From: a virus
Lineage: Duplodnaviria > Caudoviricetes
Direction: 5' to 3' (one strand)
IMG/VR virus record: IMGVR_UViG_3300048838_000571
Span: 1-25,154 of that record
DNA: 25,154 bases
Position 1 is the first letter of the stretch. Every line of letters begins with the position of its first letter. Shown piece by piece: positions 1,692 through 25,101 of the stretch. A program made the translations under genes and the position numbers. The notes beneath the pieces are model-generated. The model was not told the DNA's origin. It worked only from the letters and a program-made list of their open reading frames with translations, and did no database searches.

Positions 1692-2156
1692 TCACGGCTC
1701 CACCATCACGTCGATAGTGCAAGTCCCCGCGATGACCACATGACAACCCGTCGAATTCAACCGCCGGCCGCCTGTGCCCACCCCCGGCGTAGCGTGGTCG
1801 CCATCCCAGTAGTAGGTGCCGGTCGAGATATTGGCGACCGTCATGATCGGCGTACCCGTTGCGCTCGTGGCATCGTAGATCGTCACGTCGGCCGTGCCGC
1901 CTGTCTCGGCACGCACCACGAACCCACGGAACTCGCAGGCGCCGGTGAATGCCGTCCCGGTCGCCGTCAGTGGGACAACGGCTACCGCTTCGGATAGGGC
2001 AGCAACAGCCCCGTCCGGCGCCAGCAGCGCGGTCCCCCCGGAGTCCCAGTTGGCGGTCATCACCTCCCGCCCCCGAGCGTCGATGAACCCAACATGCTCA
2101 CCGGTGTCAGCATCGTAAAGGTCCGCGGATTCGCCCCTTATCAAAACGCGTGTCAT
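1692..2156 (-). CDS. Hypothetical virion structural protein (beta-rich C-terminal domain)
   Basis: 154 aa, tightly packed after the portal stop; G/T/V-rich C-terminus (FRGFVV...VTIYDATSATGT...TGCHVVIAG). Confidence 0.6.
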   Translation of the reverse strand: MTRVLIRGESADLYDADTGEHVGFIDARGREVMTANWDSGGTALLAPDGAVAALSEAVAVVPLTATGTAFTGACEFRGFVVRAETGGTADVTIYDATSATGTPIMTVANISTGTYYWDGDHATPGVGTGGRRLNSTGCHVVIAGTCTIDVMVEP

Positions 2157-2157
2157 C

Positions 2158-3831
2158 TCACACCTCCGTCGCGCTCGGGCTGCTGTAGCCTTGGAACATG
2201 TTCAGCACATCCGCCATGTTGCGGGTGTCGATCTCGCTGGCGGCTTTGGTCGCCTGGGCAGCGGCAGGGAGGGCCGCGGCGGCCTGCTGGGCCTGCTGGG
2301 CCTGCTGGCGGGCAGCCCTGATCTCCGCGACCTTGTCGTCCGGCACGATGATCCTCGGGTTCACCCCGAACATCTCGGCGTACTCGTCGACTACCTGGTC
2401 GAGATCGATCTTGTCGACCACATCCGGCCGCAGCTGGGCGAGGGACCCAACCGTTCCAAGCAAACGGTCAGACCCCGCGGCCGCAACAGCCCTCTGCGCC
2501 TGCGCGAGCACGCTCACGAACTCGATGTCGAGGTCGACCCCTTCCAGCTCCGGGGGCGGAGGTGGCAGTGCCCCGACCGACTCCAGCCTCGTGAACGTCA
2601 GCTCGACCAGTGGTTCCAGCAACTCGAAGTGAAGCCGCTCCAGCACCGGCCCCAGCATCAGCATCTTCTCTTCGTGTCGTTCCGCGATTTCGGTAGCGGT
2701 GATCCCACTGCGGCGATCGTCCACCAGCATCTGGAACAGGTCTTCGTAGAAGCTGCTGCGGATCCGCTGGCGGACATCCTCGATGTCCTCCTTCAGGTCC
2801 CGCAACGGGAGGTTCACTTCCCATGCGGATCGGATCCCGGCCGTTGTGGCCGTCGAGGGCACGTACATCGTGCCACCCGGCAACCGGGACGACTGCTTCT
2901 CCTGGTACCCGACCGGGACCTGCAGCGGTGGGTTCACCTGGTAGTCGATCGCCTGCGACTTGCGGGTCTGCTCGAACTGCAACTGCTTCACGTCGCCGAT
3001 GCACTCCATCGCTGGCGAGTGCCCGTACACGTCGTTCCCCTCGACCTCCCACCGGGGTGCGAGCACCGGGAACCGCTCGAACCCGGACTCGGACAAGAGG
3101 GTGTCCCCCTCCCCGTTGGGCTCGAAGTAGCAGCTCGCAAACGGCATGTTGATCGAGTCCCGTTTCCGGGGGTCGCGCTCTTCCCGGGGCTCGATGAAGT
3201 GGATCACGTCGACCCACTCGTCGAACCGGTTGCGGTCGAGCAAGTTGCGCACTGCAGTGCTCAAGCGGTCGCGGGGGAACCGCTTCGCGAGTTGGCCTGT
3301 CGTCATCCGCAACTGCCGCACTACAGCGGAAACCCGCCCAATGTCGTCGGTTGCGAGCGCGTACTCGCCCCAAAGCATCGGGTGGTTGTGGATCACGTTG
3401 TCGAAGTTCGGGGCGACGAAGAAGGCGGCAGTGCCAAAGGCGCCGAGGCCGCCGTAGATTTGGTGCAGCGTGTTGTAGGTGTTCGACTTCGCGAATACGC
3501 GCTGGATCAGCGAAGTCGTGTCGTGCAGCCACTGCTTGACCGGCTTGTACTCGGTCAGATCCTTGTCCGGCAGGGTCGTTCTGAACCAAGGGCGGGCCGG
3601 ACTGGTCATCCCCGACATCATCCCGGCCGCGAGCGTGCGGTTCGCCCGCCTGGCAGCGTTGTCGAGAATCGACAAGTCCTTCCGTGTGCCCTGGTTCGTC
3701 TCCGTGGTCTGGAGTCTGATACCGTCCGGACGGACATACTTGGCGATGTCGGCGCAGCGGGTATCCCAGCTGGACCGTTCAGCCCACAGCCGGGTTTTTC
3801 GCTCCATCATCCGGGTGCGAGGAGCAGCCAC
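2158..3831 (-). CDS. Portal protein (podovirus head-to-tail connector)
   Basis: 557 aa; LAAGMMSGMTSPARPWF, RW...YGHSPAM, TATEIAERHEEKMLMLGPVLERL and EFVSVLAQAQR match the T7 gp8/BPP-1-type connector family. Confidence 0.95.
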   Translation of the reverse strand: MAAPRTRMMERKTRLWAERSSWDTRCADIAKYVRPDGIRLQTTETNQGTRKDLSILDNAARRANRTLAAGMMSGMTSPARPWFRTTLPDKDLTEYKPVKQWLHDTTSLIQRVFAKSNTYNTLHQIYGGLGAFGTAAFFVAPNFDNVIHNHPMLWGEYALATDDIGRVSAVVRQLRMTTGQLAKRFPRDRLSTAVRNLLDRNRFDEWVDVIHFIEPREERDPRKRDSINMPFASCYFEPNGEGDTLLSESGFERFPVLAPRWEVEGNDVYGHSPAMECIGDVKQLQFEQTRKSQAIDYQVNPPLQVPVGYQEKQSSRLPGGTMYVPSTATTAGIRSAWEVNLPLRDLKEDIEDVRQRIRSSFYEDLFQMLVDDRRSGITATEIAERHEEKMLMLGPVLERLHFELLEPLVELTFTRLESVGALPPPPPELEGVDLDIEFVSVLAQAQRAVAAAGSDRLLGTVGSLAQLRPDVVDKIDLDQVVDEYAEMFGVNPRIIVPDDKVAEIRAARQQAQQAQQAAAALPAAAQATKAASEIDTRNMADVLNMFQGYSSPSATEV

Positions 3832-3832
3832 G

Positions 3833-4033
3833 TCAGCCCCCGAGGATAGTGTTGCCGCCAGTGGTCAGCGCGCTGTTCGCGATGCCGGAAGGGGAGGTCA
3901 GGATCGAGCCCCCGCCCATCAACCCTCCCGCCTGCCGTCGTGCACGACGTTCTGCGAGGGTGTCAGGCTCTTTCGCATCCTGCGGGGGCGGCGCCGGTTT
4001 CGGAATCTTCGGGGTCGAGATGCACACGGTCAT
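3833..4033 (-). CDS. Small pre-portal virion protein (66 aa)
   Basis: 3' part of track ORF 3833..4420. ATG at 4033 follows GGGAG and overlaps the upstream stop (ATGA). MTVCISTPKIPKPAPPP...SILTSPSG...TILGG resembles the small proteins ending in T-L-L-G that precede podovirus portals. Confidence 0.75.
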   Translation of the reverse strand: MTVCISTPKIPKPAPPPQDAKEPDTLAERRARRQAGGLMGGGSILTSPSGIANSALTTGGNTILGG

Positions 4034-18053: not shown

Positions 18054-20168
18054 ATGGACGGGAAAGGGGCCAACCTCTTGCAAACGACCCTCTGGCTCGA
18101 TACCGAAACGTACAGCGAGTGCGACCTGCCGACAGCAGGGCACTATGCCTACGCGGAGCACCCGAGCACTGAAATCATCGTCGTTCAGTGGGCAGTGGGC
18201 GACGAGAACCCGGTCGTGTTCGACTGCACCGAGCCTTTGCGCCCGCGCCCGCCGGCACTGATCAAGCTGCTGGAAGACCCTACGGTACTGGTCTACGCCC
18301 ACAACGCCCCGTTCGACCGTGCGGTGCTGCGGGAGTGCTGGGGGGTCGACATCCCACTGGAGCGGTGGCGGTGCAGCATGGTGCAGGCCCTCTCGCACGG
18401 GCTGCCCGGGGGTCTCGACAAGATCGGGGCCGCCCTCGGGGTCCCGGTCGACCACCTGAAGGACGACCGTGGCCGACGGCTGATTCAGCTATTCTGCAAA
18501 CCCCGCCCGAAGAACATGAAGGTTCGGCGGGCTACCCGCGAGACCAACCCGGCTGAGTGGGCCGAGTTCCTGGAATATAGCCGGCAGGACATCGTAGCGC
18601 TCCGCGCAATCGTAAAGCGGATGCCGACCTGGAACTTCCGCGAGCCCGATCAGGCCCTCTGGCGGCTCGACCAGCGGATGAACGACCGCGGTTTCGCGGT
18701 TGACCTCGACTTCGCGCGGGCCGCGGTCGAAGCAGCGAAGGCTGAGCAAGATCGGCTAGCCGCAGAAATGAGGGAAGCGACCGATGGGGCTTTGTCAGGC
18801 CCCAGCAAGCGCGACGGGTTGCTCTTCTACGTCCTGGCCGAGCACGGGGTCCCCCTCCCTGACATGCGTGCGGATACCCTCCGCCGGCGGGCGGAGGACC
18901 CCGAGCTCCCCGATGGCGTTCGAGTGCTGCTGAACCTGAGGCTGGAGTCGACGAAGACCAGTACCAGCAAGTACAAGCGGGTGCTGTCTGGCGCCTCCGG
19001 CGACGGCCGAATGCATGGTGGCACCCAGTTCCGGGGGGCCCACCGAACCGGCCGGTGGGCTGGCCGCGGGCTGCAACCACAGAACTTCCCCCGACCCACC
19101 CCAGGGCTGAAGAGGGCCGACATCGCGGCCGCGATCGAGGCGATCCGATGCGGGGCCGCCGGCCTCGTGCTTGACAACGTGATGCGGTGGCTGGCAGACG
19201 CTGTCCGGGGGGTGATCGTAGCGCCACCGGGCAAGAAGCTGGTTGTGGCCGACCTCTCGAACATCGAAGGCAGAGGTCTGGCTGAGCTTGCGGGGGAAGC
19301 CTGGAAACTGGACGCGTTTCGGGCGTTCGATGCCGGGGCGGGGCCGGACCTCTACAAGGTTGCCTACGGACGCGCCTTCGGCGTCCCAGCAGAAGGAGTA
19401 ACAAAAGACCAGCGCCAGATCGGCAAGGTCCAGGAGCTTGCCCTCGGCTACGAAGGCGGGGTCGGTGCGTTTCTGACCTTTGCGGCGGTCTACGGCATGG
19501 ACCTGGATGCGATGGCCGACGCCGTCTGGATGACTGCATCGACTGATGCCATCGCAGAAGCGGGCGAGACCCTGGCGTGGGCCAAGAGAAAACACCGCAG
19601 CACGTTCGGGCTGTCTGACAAGGCCTACATCGCATGCGAAGTGCTGAAAGCGTCCTGGCGGGCGGCCCACCCCGCCACCGTGGCTCTGTGGGCCCGGATG
19701 AAAGAAGCCTACAGGCAGGCGACACTGGTTCCCGGTGTCACTCTGGAAATTGGCGCAAAGCTGAAGATACGGCGGGACAAGAACTGGCTCAGGCTGAAGC
19801 TGCCGTCGGGCAGGTACCTCTGTTACATCGCGCCCCAGGTCCACGAAGACGGCTCGATCAGCTACCTGGGGGTCAACCAGTACACCCGCCAATGGGGCCG
19901 GATCAAGACCTACGGCGGGAAGCTGGCCGAGAACGCAACCCAGGCGTGGGCTTGCGACGTGATGGCGCACAACCTGCCGGCGCTTGAAGGTGCCGGTTAC
20001 CTTCCGGTCCTGACCGTCCACGACGAGGTGCTGGCCGAAACGCCAGACACCGACAACTACACCGCCGGGAGGATGGCCGAGCTGCTAGCCACCACACCCC
20101 CGTGGGGCAGGGGCTGCCCGCTCGCCGCCGCGGGGTTCGAGGCCCACCGGTACGGCAAGGAAGATTGA
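18054..20168 (+). CDS. polA: Family A DNA polymerase with 3'-5' exonuclease (true start may be TTG at 18078)
   Basis: Exo LDTETYS and AHNAPFDR; HRTGRWAG, QPQNFPR, motif A ADLSNIEGR, motif B RQIGKVQELALGY, motif C LTVHDE. Confidence 0.96.
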   Translation: MDGKGANLLQTTLWLDTETYSECDLPTAGHYAYAEHPSTEIIVVQWAVGDENPVVFDCTEPLRPRPPALIKLLEDPTVLVYAHNAPFDRAVLRECWGVDIPLERWRCSMVQALSHGLPGGLDKIGAALGVPVDHLKDDRGRRLIQLFCKPRPKNMKVRRATRETNPAEWAEFLEYSRQDIVALRAIVKRMPTWNFREPDQALWRLDQRMNDRGFAVDLDFARAAVEAAKAEQDRLAAEMREATDGALSGPSKRDGLLFYVLAEHGVPLPDMRADTLRRRAEDPELPDGVRVLLNLRLESTKTSTSKYKRVLSGASGDGRMHGGTQFRGAHRTGRWAGRGLQPQNFPRPTPGLKRADIAAAIEAIRCGAAGLVLDNVMRWLADAVRGVIVAPPGKKLVVADLSNIEGRGLAELAGEAWKLDAFRAFDAGAGPDLYKVAYGRAFGVPAEGVTKDQRQIGKVQELALGYEGGVGAFLTFAAVYGMDLDAMADAVWMTASTDAIAEAGETLAWAKRKHRSTFGLSDKAYIACEVLKASWRAAHPATVALWARMKEAYRQATLVPGVTLEIGAKLKIRRDKNWLRLKLPSGRYLCYIAPQVHEDGSISYLGVNQYTRQWGRIKTYGGKLAENATQAWACDVMAHNLPALEGAGYLPVLTVHDEVLAETPDTDNYTAGRMAELLATTPPWGRGCPLAAAGFEAHRYGKED

Positions 20169-20169
20169 C

Positions 20170-20439
20170 ATGCTGGAAAGCACGATCGAACAGTATCTTG
20201 TCCGGCAGGTCCGGGCCAGGGGCGGCGATGCCCGCAAAGTACACTGGATCGGCCGCAGAGGCGCCCCGGACAGAATGGTGCTGCGGAAGTACCGGGTGCC
20301 TTGTTTCGTCGAACTGAAGGCCCCTGGGCAGCAGCTACGGCCAGACCAGGCACGCGAGATCGCACTCCTTCGGTCATACGGGGTCGAAGTGCACGTGATC
20401 GACTCCCTCGAAGGGGTAGACGCCCTGCTGTCGTCATGA
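20170..20439 (+). CDS. VRR-NUC domain nuclease
   Basis: E-x-x-IE...GAPDR...FVELKAPG...LRPDQ. Confidence 0.92.
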   Translation: MLESTIEQYLVRQVRARGGDARKVHWIGRRGAPDRMVLRKYRVPCFVELKAPGQQLRPDQAREIALLRSYGVEVHVIDSLEGVDALLSS

Positions 20440-21806
20440 AGTTCTACCACCCCCACGACTATCAGCGGGCGATCACCTCCTGGATCGTCGACCACGACCG
20501 CTGCAACGTGTGTTCGGGGATGGGCACCGGCAAGACAGGCGCGACTCTCGCAGCGCTGCAGGCGCTCAACATGGTTGCGAACCCGTTCCCTGCGTTGGTG
20601 CTGGCCCCGCTCCGGGTCGCACGGACAACCTGGCCGGGAGAGTGCCGGAAGTGGGCAACCTTCAACCAGTTGACGCTGCTCGACTGGTCTGGCTCATCCC
20701 GGTTCCCGACAGGGACCCCGGACATCGTGGCTGTGAACTACGACAACGTGGCCGCCCTCGTCGCCCAGCGGCCGGACTGGCCCTGGCGAACGGTCATCGC
20801 GGACGAATCCACCAGGCTGAAGTCGTTCCGGCTGAAGCAAGGTGGCAAGCGCGCAAGTGCGCTCGGGAAGGTCGCCCACAAGCACACCCGCCGGTGGGTC
20901 AACCTGACCGGCACCCCTGCCCCGAACGGGCTGATCGACCTCTGGGGGCAGCAATGGTTTGTCGACGCCGGCCAAAGGCTCGGTCGCAGTTTCGACGCTT
21001 TCGAGCGACGATGGTTTGCCTGGCGCCGGCATGACGACGACAACCCATACGCGAGGACCCGGTTCCTGCTGCCGGGGGCGGCGGAGCAGATCTACCAGAA
21101 GTTGTCGGACTGCACAATCACGGTCCGGGCCGAGGATTTCATGGATCTCCCGCCCCTGGTCGAGAACGTCGTGCCGGTCGAGCTCCCGCCGAAAGCGCGG
21201 AAGCACTACCGCGAGCTGGAGAGGGAGCTGTTCACGCAGCTAGAAGGCCACGAGATCATGGCCGCGAACGCTGCAGCGAAGACGATGAAGTGCCTACAGG
21301 CCGCGAACGGGGCGCTCTACATCAACCCGGAAGGCGATTGGAAAGGGCTTCATGACGAGAAGATCGAGGCCCTCGGGTCGATTCTGGAAGAGGCCGCCGG
21401 CGCCCCGGTCCTGGTGGCCTACCATTTCAAGAGCGACCTGGAACGAATCCAGCGGGCGTTCCCTTTCGCTCGGACCTTGGGTGCTGACGGTACTGCGATC
21501 GAAGAGTGGAACGCCGGGCGAATACCTCTCCTGCTGGTACATCCTGCTTCGGCGGGGCATGGTCTCAACCTACAGGATGGCGGCAACATCCTCGCGTTCT
21601 TCGGGCTCTGGTGGGACCTCGAACAGCACCAGCAAGTGATCGAGCGGATCGGGCCCACAAGGCAGCTCCAGTCCGGCCGCAGGAGAAGCACCTACGTGCA
21701 CTACATCGTGGCCGAGGGCACCGTCGACGAGATCGTGCTCAAGCGGCTAAAGACCAAGAAGGCGGTCCAGGACCTGCTACTCGAAGCAATGAAGGAGAAC
21801 CAATGA
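20436..21806 (+). CDS. SNF2/DEAD-like superfamily 2 helicase
   Basis: ATG at 20436 (ATGA overlap); PHDYQ, MGTGKT, IADES, LTGTP and HPASAGHGLNLQ. Confidence 0.93.
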   Translation: MKFYHPHDYQRAITSWIVDHDRCNVCSGMGTGKTGATLAALQALNMVANPFPALVLAPLRVARTTWPGECRKWATFNQLTLLDWSGSSRFPTGTPDIVAVNYDNVAALVAQRPDWPWRTVIADESTRLKSFRLKQGGKRASALGKVAHKHTRRWVNLTGTPAPNGLIDLWGQQWFVDAGQRLGRSFDAFERRWFAWRRHDDDNPYARTRFLLPGAAEQIYQKLSDCTITVRAEDFMDLPPLVENVVPVELPPKARKHYRELERELFTQLEGHEIMAANAAAKTMKCLQAANGALYINPEGDWKGLHDEKIEALGSILEEAAGAPVLVAYHFKSDLERIQRAFPFARTLGADGTAIEEWNAGRIPLLLVHPASAGHGLNLQDGGNILAFFGLWWDLEQHQQVIERIGPTRQLQSGRRRSTYVHYIVAEGTVDEIVLKRLKTKKAVQDLLLEAMKENQ

Positions 21807-22282
21807 ACAACCTGTCGGCCCAGCAGCGCCGGGTCGTGGATCTTGTCGCCGCCAGCGGCAGCGAAGGGATGTCGAAGGCGGAACTGTGCCTCGCCTTGAA
21901 CGTCTACATCGGGACGCTGGAAACCTATCTCGCGGGGCTGGTGCCTGGCCGCCTGGCGGTGAACGACCCACGACCCGGCGGCAAGCGGCAAACACGGCGG
22001 TACTACCAGCCCGGGTGCGAGCCTTCACCGCAACCGAAAGCAAAGGCAAAGGCAAAGGCGAAGAAGCCGGCGCCCGTCTTTGCCCGCGTGCGGACGACGA
22101 CAATCCGCGACCTTCAGAAATCGATCACCCGTGACGAACCCGTGATCGTGCCGCCGCACGTCAAGCCAGTGACGAAGCAGAACTACATCGGCGATACCCG
22201 CTACCTGGTAACGGATGCGCCGCGCGTCATCGATGCGCGTGACTGCCGGCCATGGGCAGTGGCTGCGGCGCGGGCGGCCTGA
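21803..22282 (+). CDS. Hypothetical protein with probable N-terminal winged-helix domain (159 aa)
   Basis: ATG at 21803 after AAGGAG; LSAQQRRVVDLV...GMSKAELCLALNV...TLETYL. Confidence 0.65.
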   Translation: MNNLSAQQRRVVDLVAASGSEGMSKAELCLALNVYIGTLETYLAGLVPGRLAVNDPRPGGKRQTRRYYQPGCEPSPQPKAKAKAKAKKPAPVFARVRTTTIRDLQKSITRDEPVIVPPHVKPVTKQNYIGDTRYLVTDAPRVIDARDCRPWAVAAARAA

Positions 22283-22348
22283 CGCAGAAAAGAAAACCCA
22301 GGGGGCAAGGATGAGTGACACGCCAACACGGCGCCTGAAGGACGAGGC

Positions 22349-22519
22349 ATGACCACCCTACTCGACGCAGCACGGCAGGCGCTGGCAGCTTTGGAGTACA
22401 TGTACCACACCGCCGACCCCGGGCCTGCCCGGGACGTTTCGATGGAGGCGCTCGACGCGCTGCGCACCGCCATCGCGGAGGCGGAGCGAGCGCATGGAAT
22501 CGGAGACAGCAATGAGTGA
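22349..22519 (+). CDS. Small hypothetical protein (56 aa)
   Basis: Below the track cut-off; MTTLLDAARQALAALE...ALDALRTAIAEAERAHGIGDSNE. Confidence 0.65.
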   Translation: MTTLLDAARQALAALEYMYHTADPGPARDVSMEALDALRTAIAEAERAHGIGDSNE

Positions 22520-22841
22520 CCTTGTGAAACTCGCCCGCCAGCGCATTGACAACGACCAGCGCACACACTGGGATGGCTGCGAACGCAGCCATCGTGAGTG
22601 CCTGATCCAGCGTATGGCAGACGAGATCGAGCGGCTACGCGCTACGCTTGAGCGCCAGCAGATCAGCTATGAGCGTGAACGACAACTCGATCAGGAGGAG
22701 ACCGAGCGTCTACGCGCACAGATCGCCGATGCTGAGGTCCTCGCAGAGTACGGCCGCGATGACGGCCTGCGCGACCGGGTGTACGTGGGCGCATGGCTCT
22801 CCCCGGGCGACCGCATCGTTGTGCGGCACCGCGAGAAGTGA
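22512..22841 (+). CDS. Hypothetical protein with coiled coil (109 aa)
   Basis: ATG at 22512 after GGAG; THWDGC...HRECLI...ADEIERLR. Confidence 0.7.
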   Translation: MSDLVKLARQRIDNDQRTHWDGCERSHRECLIQRMADEIERLRATLERQQISYERERQLDQEETERLRAQIADAEVLAEYGRDDGLRDRVYVGAWLSPGDRIVVRHREK

Positions 22842-22858
22842 CGGATTAGCGGTGAGGA

Positions 22859-23089
22859 ATGAAAATGGACAAAGACACCACACCACTTACCTTCGGTAAA
22901 TACAAGGGCAAGACACCGCAAGAAGTTGCGGAGATCGACGGAAGCTACGTCATTTGGATGTTCGAGAACGTGACTCCAACTCCGTGCAGCAAAGAACTTG
23001 CGGAATCTTGTGAGGCTGACGAGCGAGAAGACGATGAAGAATGGGCCGCTGGTGCGCAGTACGGTATCGACGGATGGGATAACTGGTGA
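22859..23089 (+). CDS. DUF3820-like small protein (FGKYKG motif) with acidic tail
   Basis: LTFGKYKGKT...SYVIW pattern. Confidence 0.75.
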   Translation: MKMDKDTTPLTFGKYKGKTPQEVAEIDGSYVIWMFENVTPTPCSKELAESCEADEREDDEEWAAGAQYGIDGWDNW

Positions 23090-23143
23090 CGCTGGCGGTA
23101 CCCGGCGTAATGACGGGTTATCCGTCGTAACAGGAGCGAGCGA

Positions 23144-23491
23144 ATGGTGAAACTGACAGGCAGCGAGTGGAATCGCTTTTACAACGACGCGGGGGCTTGG
23201 CCGGATGGCGCATGGCACGAAGACGAGGAAATCACCGTGGACGGCAAAACGGCCGGTGATGACCTCGACCTTTCGGCCGTGCCGGATGGGGCAATGCTGA
23301 CCGTGGAGGGTGGTGTGGTGTACCTGACCGAAGACGCGGACTACGGCCCGTCTCTGGAAGCGCACTTCAAGCGTTGGCGCAAGCGGCAGACGACAACCGT
23401 GCTTGTCGTGGAAGTGCCGCACGAAGCCGTCAAAGTCGTGCGCGCTGCGATTGCTGCTGCTGGCGGCAAGGTAATTCGAGACAAGGAATGA
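23144..23491 (+). CDS. Hypothetical acidic protein (115 aa)
   Basis: RBS AGGAG; ATGA coupling downstream. Confidence 0.75.
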   Translation: MVKLTGSEWNRFYNDAGAWPDGAWHEDEEITVDGKTAGDDLDLSAVPDGAMLTVEGGVVYLTEDADYGPSLEAHFKRWRKRQTTTVLVVEVPHEAVKVVRAAIAAAGGKVIRDKE

Positions 23492-23796
23492 CCGCTGCAG
23501 AAACTATGCGAGTTGCTCTGCTGGCGCTGGAAGACGCCGCGAGCGTGCTAGGCACTTCCTGGGCTGACTCTGTGGCGCACAAGCCGATTGCTGCGCTACG
23601 GGCGGCGCTTGATGCTACTGACGACGACGTTGATGTGCTTGCCTCGTACAGCCGAACCGATGGCCGGCGCGAGTGGGTCAATGTCGGGACATGGCTGCGG
23701 CCTGGCGAGGTGGTGGCGCGCATGGCAGACCCGCGGCCTAACGTTCGAGCTAAGCGGGGCCAAACGGCGCCGCACAACCAAGGAGAAACGCAATGA
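23488..23796 (+). CDS. Hypothetical protein (102 aa) whose C-terminus reads into attC1
   Basis: ATG at 23488; the last residues (PNVRAKRGQTAPHNQGETQ) are encoded by the attC left arm and loop. Confidence 0.7.
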   Translation: MTAAETMRVALLALEDAASVLGTSWADSVAHKPIAALRAALDATDDDVDVLASYSRTDGRREWVNVGTWLRPGEVVARMADPRPNVRAKRGQTAPHNQGETQ

Positions 23797-23838
23797 ACTC
23801 ACCCGCCGTTTGGACTCCGCTTGAGCGAGGGGTTAGGC
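23736..23838 (-). mobile_element. attC: Integron attC-type site 1 (103 bp); the plus strand is the attC bottom strand
   Basis: GCCTAAC-6nt-GCTAAGC-GGGGCCAAACGGCG...CGCCGTTTGGACTCC-GCTTGAGC-5nt-GTTAGGC, with an extra G in the 8-nt L box. Confidence 0.88.
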
Positions 23839-24098
23839 GCCTGCTCGCATGGTGGCGAGCCGCTGGCCCCGACATGGCGACGCCGAGCGGAGGCTACGAA
23901 GCCGAGCCCGAAGAAGACCGCATCGAGGCCGCGTACTGGCGATTCGACGCGCGGCACAAGGGCTACGGCAAGTGGAAGGCCGCGCCGATGAGTGAGCGCG
24001 ACGCCTTCAAGGCCGAGATGCGCAACGCGCTGGCCGCCGAGAAAACGCGGGCACAGATGCGGCTGGTGGCGCATGGCTGGCGTCGCCCTGGCGCCTAA
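23793..24098 (+). CDS. Cassette A gene, hypothetical protein (101 aa)
   Basis: RBS AAGGAG and ATG lie within the attC1 loop; the stop TAA is part of the next GCCTAAC. Confidence 0.75.
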   Translation: MNSPAVWTPLERGVRRLLAWWRAAGPDMATPSGGYEAEPEEDRIEAAYWRFDARHKGYGKWKAAPMSERDAFKAEMRNALAAEKTRAQMRLVAHGWRRPGA

Positions 24099-24148
24099 CA
24101 CCTGAAATCACGCGCGCCGAAGGCGTCGCGTGCATTGAATAGTTATGC
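24093..24148 (-). mobile_element. attC: Integron attC-type site 2 (56 bp)
   Basis: GCCTAAC-ACCTGA-AATCACG-CG-CGCC-GAA-GGCG-T-CG-CGTGCATT-GAATA-GTTATGC; two extrahelical bases in the right arm. Confidence 0.88.
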
Positions 24149-24173
24149 GGCTCTGGCCGCGACGGAGAGGAAG

Positions 24174-24602
24174 ATGAGTAACGAGAAAACACCTGTTGCA
24201 TACCTGCACCAAGTTGTCTGCGGAGACGGCGAGCCAGACCAAGCGTTGTCGTTCGAGCCGGACAATTTCCCGCTTTCCGGAGTGCTCGGATACAGGTCGT
24301 TGTCGCATGAGCCGCTATTTCGTGCGGAACCGAGCAACGAGCTGGAGCGCCTGCGAACTGAACTCGGTCGCGCCTACCGAGCACTGCACGCATTTGCATT
24401 CGCCTACCGCCATGGCAAGTTTCTAAACGAAACCGCCGTCATGTATCACTCGCCGACCATCGGCGCAGCGGCGCGGTTCGTACATGGTGGCGCGCTCGAT
24501 GGCTCCGAATACTTCATCGGAAAGCCGGTCGACGTTCTGCATGCGGCCCTGCGCGGCGAACAGCCAAAGCCGCATAACGCCCGAGTTCAGCCGCTGCCGT
24601 AG
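24174..24602 (+). CDS. Cassette B gene, hypothetical protein (142 aa)
   Basis: ATG at 24174 after GGAGAGG; PVAYL...EPLF and ELERLR motifs; stops inside the attC3 loop. Confidence 0.75.
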   Translation: MSNEKTPVAYLHQVVCGDGEPDQALSFEPDNFPLSGVLGYRSLSHEPLFRAEPSNELERLRTELGRAYRALHAFAFAYRHGKFLNETAVMYHSPTIGAAARFVHGGALDGSEYFIGKPVDVLHAALRGEQPKPHNARVQPLP

Positions 24603-24629
24603 GCAGTCGGCTGGAACGAAGTGTTAGGC
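24572..24629 (-). mobile_element. attC: Integron attC-type site 3 (58 bp)
   Basis: GCATAAC-GCCCGA-GTTCAGC-CG-CTGCC-GTA-GGCAG-T-CG-GCTGGAAC-GAAGT-GTTAGGC; canonical extrahelical G and T. Confidence 0.92.
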
Positions 24630-24645
24630 ATCAACTGGAGAAGCG

Positions 24646-25029
24646 ATGGAACTGGTTTTGATCCGTGGGCTGCCTGGCAGCGGCAAAACGACGATGGCGC
24701 GCGTGCTGGAGATGGTGGGCTACGAACACCACGAAGCCGACCATTACTTTGAGCGCGCCGGACACTATGCGTTTGACGCTGCCGAACTGCCGAAGGCCCA
24801 TGAGTGGTGTTTGCGGCGCGCAAAAGACAGCATGGCGCGAGGCGTGCGCTGCGTGGTGGCCAACACCTTCACGCGCCGCTGGGAAATGCAGCCGTACTTT
24901 GATGCTGCAAAGGCGGCTGGCGTGCCCGTGCGAGTGATCGAGGCTCGCGGCGCTTGGCAGAACTGCCACGGCGTGCCGGCCGACGCCATTGAGCGGATGC
25001 GGGCGCGGTGGGAGTTGGTTGATGCCTAA
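24646..25029 (+). CDS. Cassette C gene, P-loop kinase (AAA_33/polynucleotide-kinase-like)
   Basis: LVLIRGLPGSGKTT, EADHYF, AHEWC, VVANTF and HGVP; the stop TAA is part of GCCTAAC. Confidence 0.88.
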   Translation: MELVLIRGLPGSGKTTMARVLEMVGYEHHEADHYFERAGHYAFDAAELPKAHEWCLRRAKDSMARGVRCVVANTFTRRWEMQPYFDAAKAAGVPVRVIEARGAWQNCHGVPADAIERMRARWELVDA

Positions 25030-25101
25030 CGCAATCTAGGGCGCAGGAATGCGCCCATAACCGGATAGTGGCGCATCCCTGCGCCCATAACCGGATAGTG
25101 G
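25024..25101 (-). mobile_element. Candidate attI-like primary cassette insertion site with 22-bp direct repeats
   Basis: Single core GCCTAAC without a closing GTTRRRY; TGCGCCCATAACCGGATAGTGG at 25050-25071 and 25080-25101. Confidence 0.55.

Follow-up and report, generated by a model that had tools for sequence, protein, structure and literature searches.

The window analysed here, 25,154 bases long, is the whole of one virus record, and an array of small genes and hairpins lies at its right end, on a phage contig (Table 1). Head and packaging genes occupy the minus strand. The plus strand carries a replication operon (exonuclease, SSB, polymerase and helicase), from which small genes of the same strand run to the right end of the window. 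A scan for promoters on either strand and for terminators produced no match, and, judging from gene orientation only, the array is probably transcribed rightward. ORF1 has relatives in 7 viral loci. The ORF3 ATPase cassette is present in 10 other loci with varied neighbours; the ATPase loci include 8 of 16 metagenome matches, the remaining 8 comprising 2 with another gene and 6 that are apparently due to chance. Among annotated phages, the sole match is a 52-nt ATPase stretch in one phage. Homologues of the genes occur also without hairpins. The ORF2 protein combines two small domains, which in homologues are separate or joined to other partners. The possibility that ORF0 is a fixed gene bearing an empty site was rejected, since in one relative this gene is preceded by a complementary leader of its own.

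Table 1. Features of the array and its surroundings (positions in the window; for attC sites, the strand is that of the top strand)
Feature	Position	Strand	Description
Possible right-arm remnant of another decayed site	22838-22851		ahead of gene 22859-23089; weak
Decayed attC-like site	23084-23123		shortened; between genes 22859-23089 and 23144-23491; 10.2 bits on minus
ORF0	23488-23796	+	102 aa; cassette gene, upstream hairpin lost here; runs through left arm of attC1
attC1	23736-23838	-	103 nt; bottom strand on plus; predicted crossover between 23741 and 23742
attC1 loop			ribosome-binding motif 23780-23785; ORF1 start 23793, overlapping the ORF0 stop
ORF1	23793-24098	+	101 aa, no family; first 15 codons within attC1; TAA stop in left R box of attC2
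attC2	24093-24148	-	56 nt; predicted crossover between 24098 and 24099
ORF2	24174-24602	+	142 aa, no family, 106 homologues; runs through left arm of attC3; moves with attC2
attC3	24572-24629	-	58 nt; predicted crossover between 24577 and 24578
ORF3	24646-25029	+	127 aa; AAA_33 ATPase, phrog_2071
attI-like site	25024-25091		no hairpin; R box 25024-25030, 4-nt spacer, inverted L-like box 25035-25041
Direct R-like boxes of attI-like site	25055-25061, 25085-25091		end 31 and 61 nt from core

A near-twin record, G001 (46,353 bases), is identical to the window at 1698-3870 and 19870-24223. The sole difference among the stretches compared lies at the left end, where positions 1-1697 of the window, over a beta-helix gene (151-1677), probably correspond to a swapped tail-fibre module.

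On the minus strand, all three hairpins present, in this order, an R box, a 5-nt spacer, an 8-nt L box with an unpaired base 16, an unpaired A23 and the stem and loop, followed after the loop by a 7-nt L box, a 6-nt spacer and a GTT box. The 5/8 and 7/6 layout of spacers and boxes was confirmed on bacterial attC sites fetched for comparison. A 13-pair register score amounts to 12, 13 and 13 for attC1, attC2 and attC3, respectively, on the minus strand and to 7.5, 8.5 and 6.5 on the plus strand, and the scorer yields no match in 20 simulated sequences of equal dinucleotide make-up. A covariance model trained on 33 bacterial attC top strands only assigns 67.9 bits to attC3, 50.6 bits to attC2 and a partial match of 16.6 bits to the long attC1 on the minus strand, the best score on the plus strand being 10.4 bits. 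Folding energies point the same way for two of the three sites: the plus strand is more stable by 2.7 kcal/mol in attC1 and by 3.1 kcal/mol in attC3, and less stable than the minus strand by 0.8 kcal/mol in attC2, where the first unpaired base of the bottom strand is C, not G. An Rfam search produced no match.

Several features mark these structures as attC sites: each is an imperfect hairpin whose R and L boxes, spacers and unpaired bases (16 and 23/24) can be placed, the AAC cut point is conserved, and the cassette ends would be complementary in the circular form. With at least two attC sites on one strand within 4 kb, and no integrase close by, the array corresponds to the CALIN definition (PMC4889954, PMC9892861, as given in the available portions of both papers). 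The genes and the integron surroundings depart from the canonical scheme: the gene is not on the top strand with its own attC behind it; no intI lies beside the array in the 63 bases covered beyond the attI-like site; and no Pc reads the cassettes from the attI side, the genes pointing toward that site. As the top-strand layout is on minus, opposite to the genes on plus, the bottom strand is the coding one. The preliminary description had claimed that the attC sites are inverted relative to their genes and that all three sites are alike in this respect, and had proposed to compare the strand of covariance-model hits with that of the ORFs; the register and the covariance scores, taken with the strand of the genes, bear it out. 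Within the range to which that description referred, 23736-24629, lie three hairpins and two complete cassettes; the third cassette, like the end of the array, is found past 24629. What is present is a genuine array of CALIN type, in which the attC sites, as recombination sites, are normal and the genes are reversed; the inversion concerns the gene inside its cassette and the side of the array from which transcription comes.

The cassette ends form a 10-bp inverted repeat for ORF1, are complementary over 11 bases (15/16) for ORF2 and form 13-bp inverted ends for ORF3, as expected of circularising units; in the ORF2 cassette, its own two R boxes complement each other, and each mismatches its arrayed partner. 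End complementarity is symmetric and therefore cannot choose between the upstream and the downstream hairpin. The choice was examined through recurrence. The unit composed of attC2 and ORF2 up to the AAC of attC3 (24093-24578 or 24581) is matched by contigs from 3 of 8 runs, from three studies; in these runs (X4, X5 and X6), the 24093-24578 block differs in 19 letters and is flanked on both sides by foreign DNA, and the downstream DNA differs between X4 and X5. Since attC2 and ORF2 recur as a unit among other neighbours, the left AA/C would be the usual cut. Protein sequences break at the same place: five of seven close full-length homologues of ORF0 match it as far as the Asn of the AAC box and no further, the remaining two diverge one residue earlier, and several ORF2 homologues likewise depart just behind the Asn that the AAC box encodes (24 of 131 homologous proteins were read for these points). 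The three closest ATPase-cassette pairs that come from different contexts and have both flanks readable keep the upstream, not the downstream, hairpin in every case, with upstream versus downstream body identities of 1.00 (as reverse complement) and 0.56, 0.95 and 0.53, and 0.84 and 0.49.

A comparison of hairpin bodies over 29,306 pairs among 244 viral sites also favours the upstream hairpin, though not in a strict sense. None of the 4 site pairs with only the upstream flank in common share the body, and 3 of the 21 pairs with only the downstream flank in common have bodies at least 80% alike (background 1.1%), two of these three being identical from AAC onward; the remaining 18 have unlike bodies. 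Across 44 pairs of the ATPase family, hairpin bodies are no more alike where the genes are more alike (Spearman 0.07, not significant), and in two pairs whose genes are 93-94% identical only 68% of the body is shared. The attC3 core is found in five other viral loci, in none of which the ATPase gene follows. The claim in the preliminary description that the crossover is at the left AA/C and that attC travels ahead of the ORF is thus upheld by block recurrence, by the divergence after Asn and by the three ATPase pairs, with the exception that the hairpin is not a permanent part of the cassette: the left cut appears to be the usual one, with hairpin bodies also replaced against genes, on a slower clock. 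A joint from 23077 to 25026, which would correspond to an array emptied down to its terminal site, was seen in one run; one of its sides comprises only 20 letters, and no conclusion is drawn from it.

Other rearrangements involve the same family. Loci L352 and L354 share a 42-nt body that lies between the same R boxes and before an identical ATPase gene, yet points in opposite directions in the two loci; the inverted body of L352 sits in an otherwise reversed array and comes from a single low-coverage contig, so that the flip is a possible route between polarities or an artefact. In L345 and L349, the ATPase-cassette leader and trailer surround an unrelated 97-aa gene, behind a hairpin of the L001 type, and a joint in run X10 (24633-25020) places this leader and trailer around a different gene, which suggests that the cassette frame can be reused.

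The right end of the array lacks a hairpin and resembles attI. Of 26 candidate viral array ends, 16 have the terminal motif, at offset 6; a list of bacterial ends, of which 2 of 19 have the motif, mostly missed hairpins, was an unfair control and was replaced by ends near intI. Among 10 loci around true intI genes, six cassette ends, 150-600 nt before the intI match, are readable, and all six of these chromosomal ends have, by eye, the 4-nt spacer and the L-like box. As in chromosomal attI sites and in attI1 (taken from MH445380), the phage site is a non-hairpin core with two inverted boxes, located where the bottom strand leaves the array, with direct repeats some 31-32 nt from the core; attI1 differs in its 5-nt spacer and in the placement of its repeats (32 and 51 nt, the second being at 61 nt in the phage site), and in the phage no intI follows within the window and the genes point toward the site. 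Similarity is greatest to the end of locus L384, on a Burkholderiaceae chromosome (4 of 2000 shuffles), a modest resemblance because it was picked after viewing ten loci. A search of viral sequences for the extended form of the attI-like motif yielded none. Pieces of 25026-25093 recur in five runs, some of them behind different upstream DNA. By analogy with these sites, 25024-25091 probably acts as attI. The direct repeats lie in a 30-nt tandem duplication (25040-25099) that also makes an inverted repeat.

At the opposite end, the shortened site at 23084-23123 has relatives with intact R boxes at both ends. The attI-like right end and the decayed left sites fit a scheme in which cassettes enter at the right and age leftward, which lends indirect support to the earlier claim that new cassettes are added at the promoter-distal end.

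No gene for the recombinase was found near the array. A family search assigned none of 37 frames of the window to tyrosine recombinases; PF00589 and TIGR02249 have no match in G001 and, in each search, none in five viral records, three of which are rated complete. Given that the window ends 63 bases past the attI-like site and G001 terminates within ORF2, an integrase gene could lie to the right of the array.

Integron cassettes are taught with one polarity, which places promoterless genes under Pc. To compare polarities, 16 of 64 viral and 2 of 64 bacterial collection parts were scanned with one gene-blind attC pattern; the resulting samples are biased to one GC-rich attC family, and the loci are not independent. 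A ribosome-binding motif and ATG just after the site were found in 228 viral sites on the bottom strand only in 117 cases, on the top strand only in 2, on both in 2 and on neither in 97 (10 too short), compared with 13, 34, 3 and 203, respectively, in 261 bacterial sites (8 too short). In 130 viral cassettes, the longest frame between sites lies on the bottom strand in 66 and on the top strand in 18 and is tied in 46; in 153 bacterial ones, the numbers are 11, 128 and 14, respectively. By array, 64 of 96 viral arrays are reversed (genes on the bottom strand), 1 is canonical (top) and 31 are uncalled; among the 96 bacterial arrays, 29 are canonical, 5 reversed and 62 uncalled. PHROG families match the bottom-strand frames of 20, and the top-strand frames of none, of 70 viral cassettes drawn at random from 122, and in 61 long viral sites a start signal lies within the loop on the bottom strand in 24 cases and on the top strand in 1. 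No mixed orientation is seen in any of 59 viral loci with several strict sites. Two further measures were not used: open-frame length upstream of the R-box TAA does not separate the strands in viruses (97/202 top, 101/198 bottom), and GC3 minus GC1 separates them weakly (bottom higher in 76 of 122). Thus, the comparison of attC and ORF orientation between phage and chromosomal arrays that had been suggested as a check agrees with the reading of the present locus, callable viral arrays being mostly reversed and callable bacterial arrays mostly canonical, and reversed polarity is apparently common in phages. Among the reversed bacterial loci, L243 (a Rhodanobacter contig) has the same terminal motif and adjoins an apparent phage integrase gene, so that it is likely a prophage.

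Taken as a whole, the data are best compatible with an integrase-less array that has a hairpin before each gene on the coding strand and is cut and joined at the left AA/C by a borrowed host integron integrase, a reading to which we assign a probability of about 0.7. A host IntI would cut the folded plus strand at AA/C, by ordinary bottom-strand chemistry, and would integrate at the terminal site; the cassette, a hairpin with the gene behind it, would move as a unit. New cassettes would enter at the end far from the upstream replication operon and old ones would decay at the near end, with the genes read from the rightward transcript of the phage and not from a Pc beside attI. Host cassettes in the phage site and phage cassettes in a host attI are both predicted to face against the local promoter, the latter being antisense to Pc because of the bottom-strand chemistry (PMC5027507, as described in the accessible part of the text). 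The reversal might serve such mutual silence of host and phage cassettes, or it might place the coding strand as lagging-strand template and so raise recombination, considering that a lagging-strand template favours attC folding (PMC8946536, accessible part). A bolder proposal, which we would not back on balance and yet take seriously, is that phages run a mirror-image cassette pool, in which they would imitate the attI of the host, rely on its integrase and place their genes on the opposite strand, so that anti-phage cassettes of the host would be silent in the phage and phage cassettes would be silent in the host, would reuse trailer-hairpin-leader frames and would switch polarity by a flip of the hairpin body.

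Several other explanations of the locus have to be weighed. The same array with the same polarity might be handled by an enzyme other than IntI, such as a Xer-like or other tyrosine recombinase of the host or of a co-infecting element; the spacer of the terminal site, shorter than that of attI1, and the absence of intI from every viral record checked would suit this scheme, which is nevertheless improbable considering that the 4-nt-spacer build is common to ends beside true intI genes, that the unpaired bases 16 and 23 are what IntI reads (PMC5027507, accessible part), that reversed sites of phage PH101 recombine with IntI1 (PMC9892861, accessible part) and that PF00589 matches none of five viral records. 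Alternatively, the hairpin bodies could be independent modules with both R boxes cut at similar rates, polarity being only a population bias. Body swaps between genes are what this model predicts, and L352 does hold the exact reverse complement of the L354 body, with the same R boxes and an identical gene; the model is quite unlikely given that in none of 4 pairs and none of 3 pairs does a gene keep its downstream body in a new context, that none of the 59 viral loci with several strict sites has mixed orientation and that the recurring block ends at 24578.

The hypothesis that the locus is a relic, left by a single capture of part of a host integron, shuffling in relatives being phage mosaicism via short homologies, draws on the resemblance of the attI-like site to that of one Burkholderiaceae chromosome (with the limits given above), on the decayed upstream sites and on the gene homologues without hairpins. 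It is very unlikely, as host arrays have the opposite polarity, the breakpoints lie at AAC, the cassette ends are mutually complementary, and a comparison of 130 viral with 153 bacterial cassette proteins yields one 20-residue match only, that is, no real match. Finally, open frames of 100-130 codons on the minus strand raise the question whether the real genes are there, in canonical arrays, or whether the hairpins are RNA signals. Both versions are largely refuted, by the PHROG results (0 of 70 top-strand versus 20 of 70 bottom-strand frames), by the lack of Rfam or terminator matches and by the unpaired-base register together with the behaviour of the junctions. The overlapping minus-strand frames of the present array were rejected as real genes, no family being found on that strand for the four tested. 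Reversed cassettes moved by a host integron integrase thus stay the preferred reading.

Compared with the canonical cassette as described by Nivina et al. 2016 (PMC5027507, accessible part), the phage cassettes have the same R and L boxes, unpaired bases 16 and 23 (16 and 23/24 in that description), bottom-strand cut in AAC and complementary ends; the bottom strand, usually the stabler fold in canonical sites, is so in two of the three phage sites. The differences are that the phage gene follows its own hairpin and is encoded on the bottom strand, with no intI and no Pc found, and that start codons can sit in the loop and stop codons in the left R box or left arm. According to the same portion of that paper, cassettes oriented towards the promoter have never yet been observed in mobile or chromosomal integrons. 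Integrases also place cassettes outside integrons, at off-target genomic sites (10.1101/2022.09.11.507474, accessible part); those insertions keep cassette polarity and occupy single sites, unlike the reversed array with a conserved end described here. Integrons with an inverted integrase (PMC4889954, accessible part) are likewise orientation variants, in which intI is flipped relative to attC, whereas here the cassette genes are.

The phage CALINs of Qi et al. 2023 (PMC9892861, accessible part) are, like the present array, attC clusters without integrase, for which IntI1 recombines five of six sites tested. The polarity of these phages, computed here, varies. In PH101, the region has 14 annotated genes, all on the strand to which both tested bottom strands belong, so that two reversed sites are among those recombined by IntI1 in the published assay; ctTUS972 is reversed at both sites detected; the published array of TJE1 is canonical; and in P12002L the reversed attC1 failed with IntI1 and the canonical-facing attC2 worked (assay from the same accessible part). 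That text calls the arrays of TJE1 and PH101 typical and, in its accessible part, makes no mention of gene-versus-attC polarity or of attI at phage-only arrays, although its figures may show orientation. A literature search, in which few subscription journals were covered, found no published description of reversed phage cassettes. Reversed cassette polarity with a likely attI is thus a new variation on integron arrays that is apparently undescribed in print.

If this organization is phage-wide, phages would keep a separate, shuffled library of accessory genes by means of the host's enzyme; tools that pair a gene with the attC behind it would mis-assign phage cassettes; and cassette exchange between host and phage would be silent by default, which would bear on the anti-phage cassettes of chromosomal integrons (10.1101/2024.07.02.601686, accessible part). 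The reused cassette frames (L345 and L349) and the body flip (L352 versus L354) would offer a handle on how cassettes arise and make cassette genesis testable.

The reversed-cassette PHROG matches include DNA methyltransferases (4 of 20) and HNH nucleases (2 of 20), in L093, L123, L070, L083, L125 and L056. Some viral hairpins (L058:2498-2600, L061:1237-1350 and one in L130) are followed by AT-rich, promoter-like DNA with no gene, and these stretches might be promoter cassettes or array boundaries.
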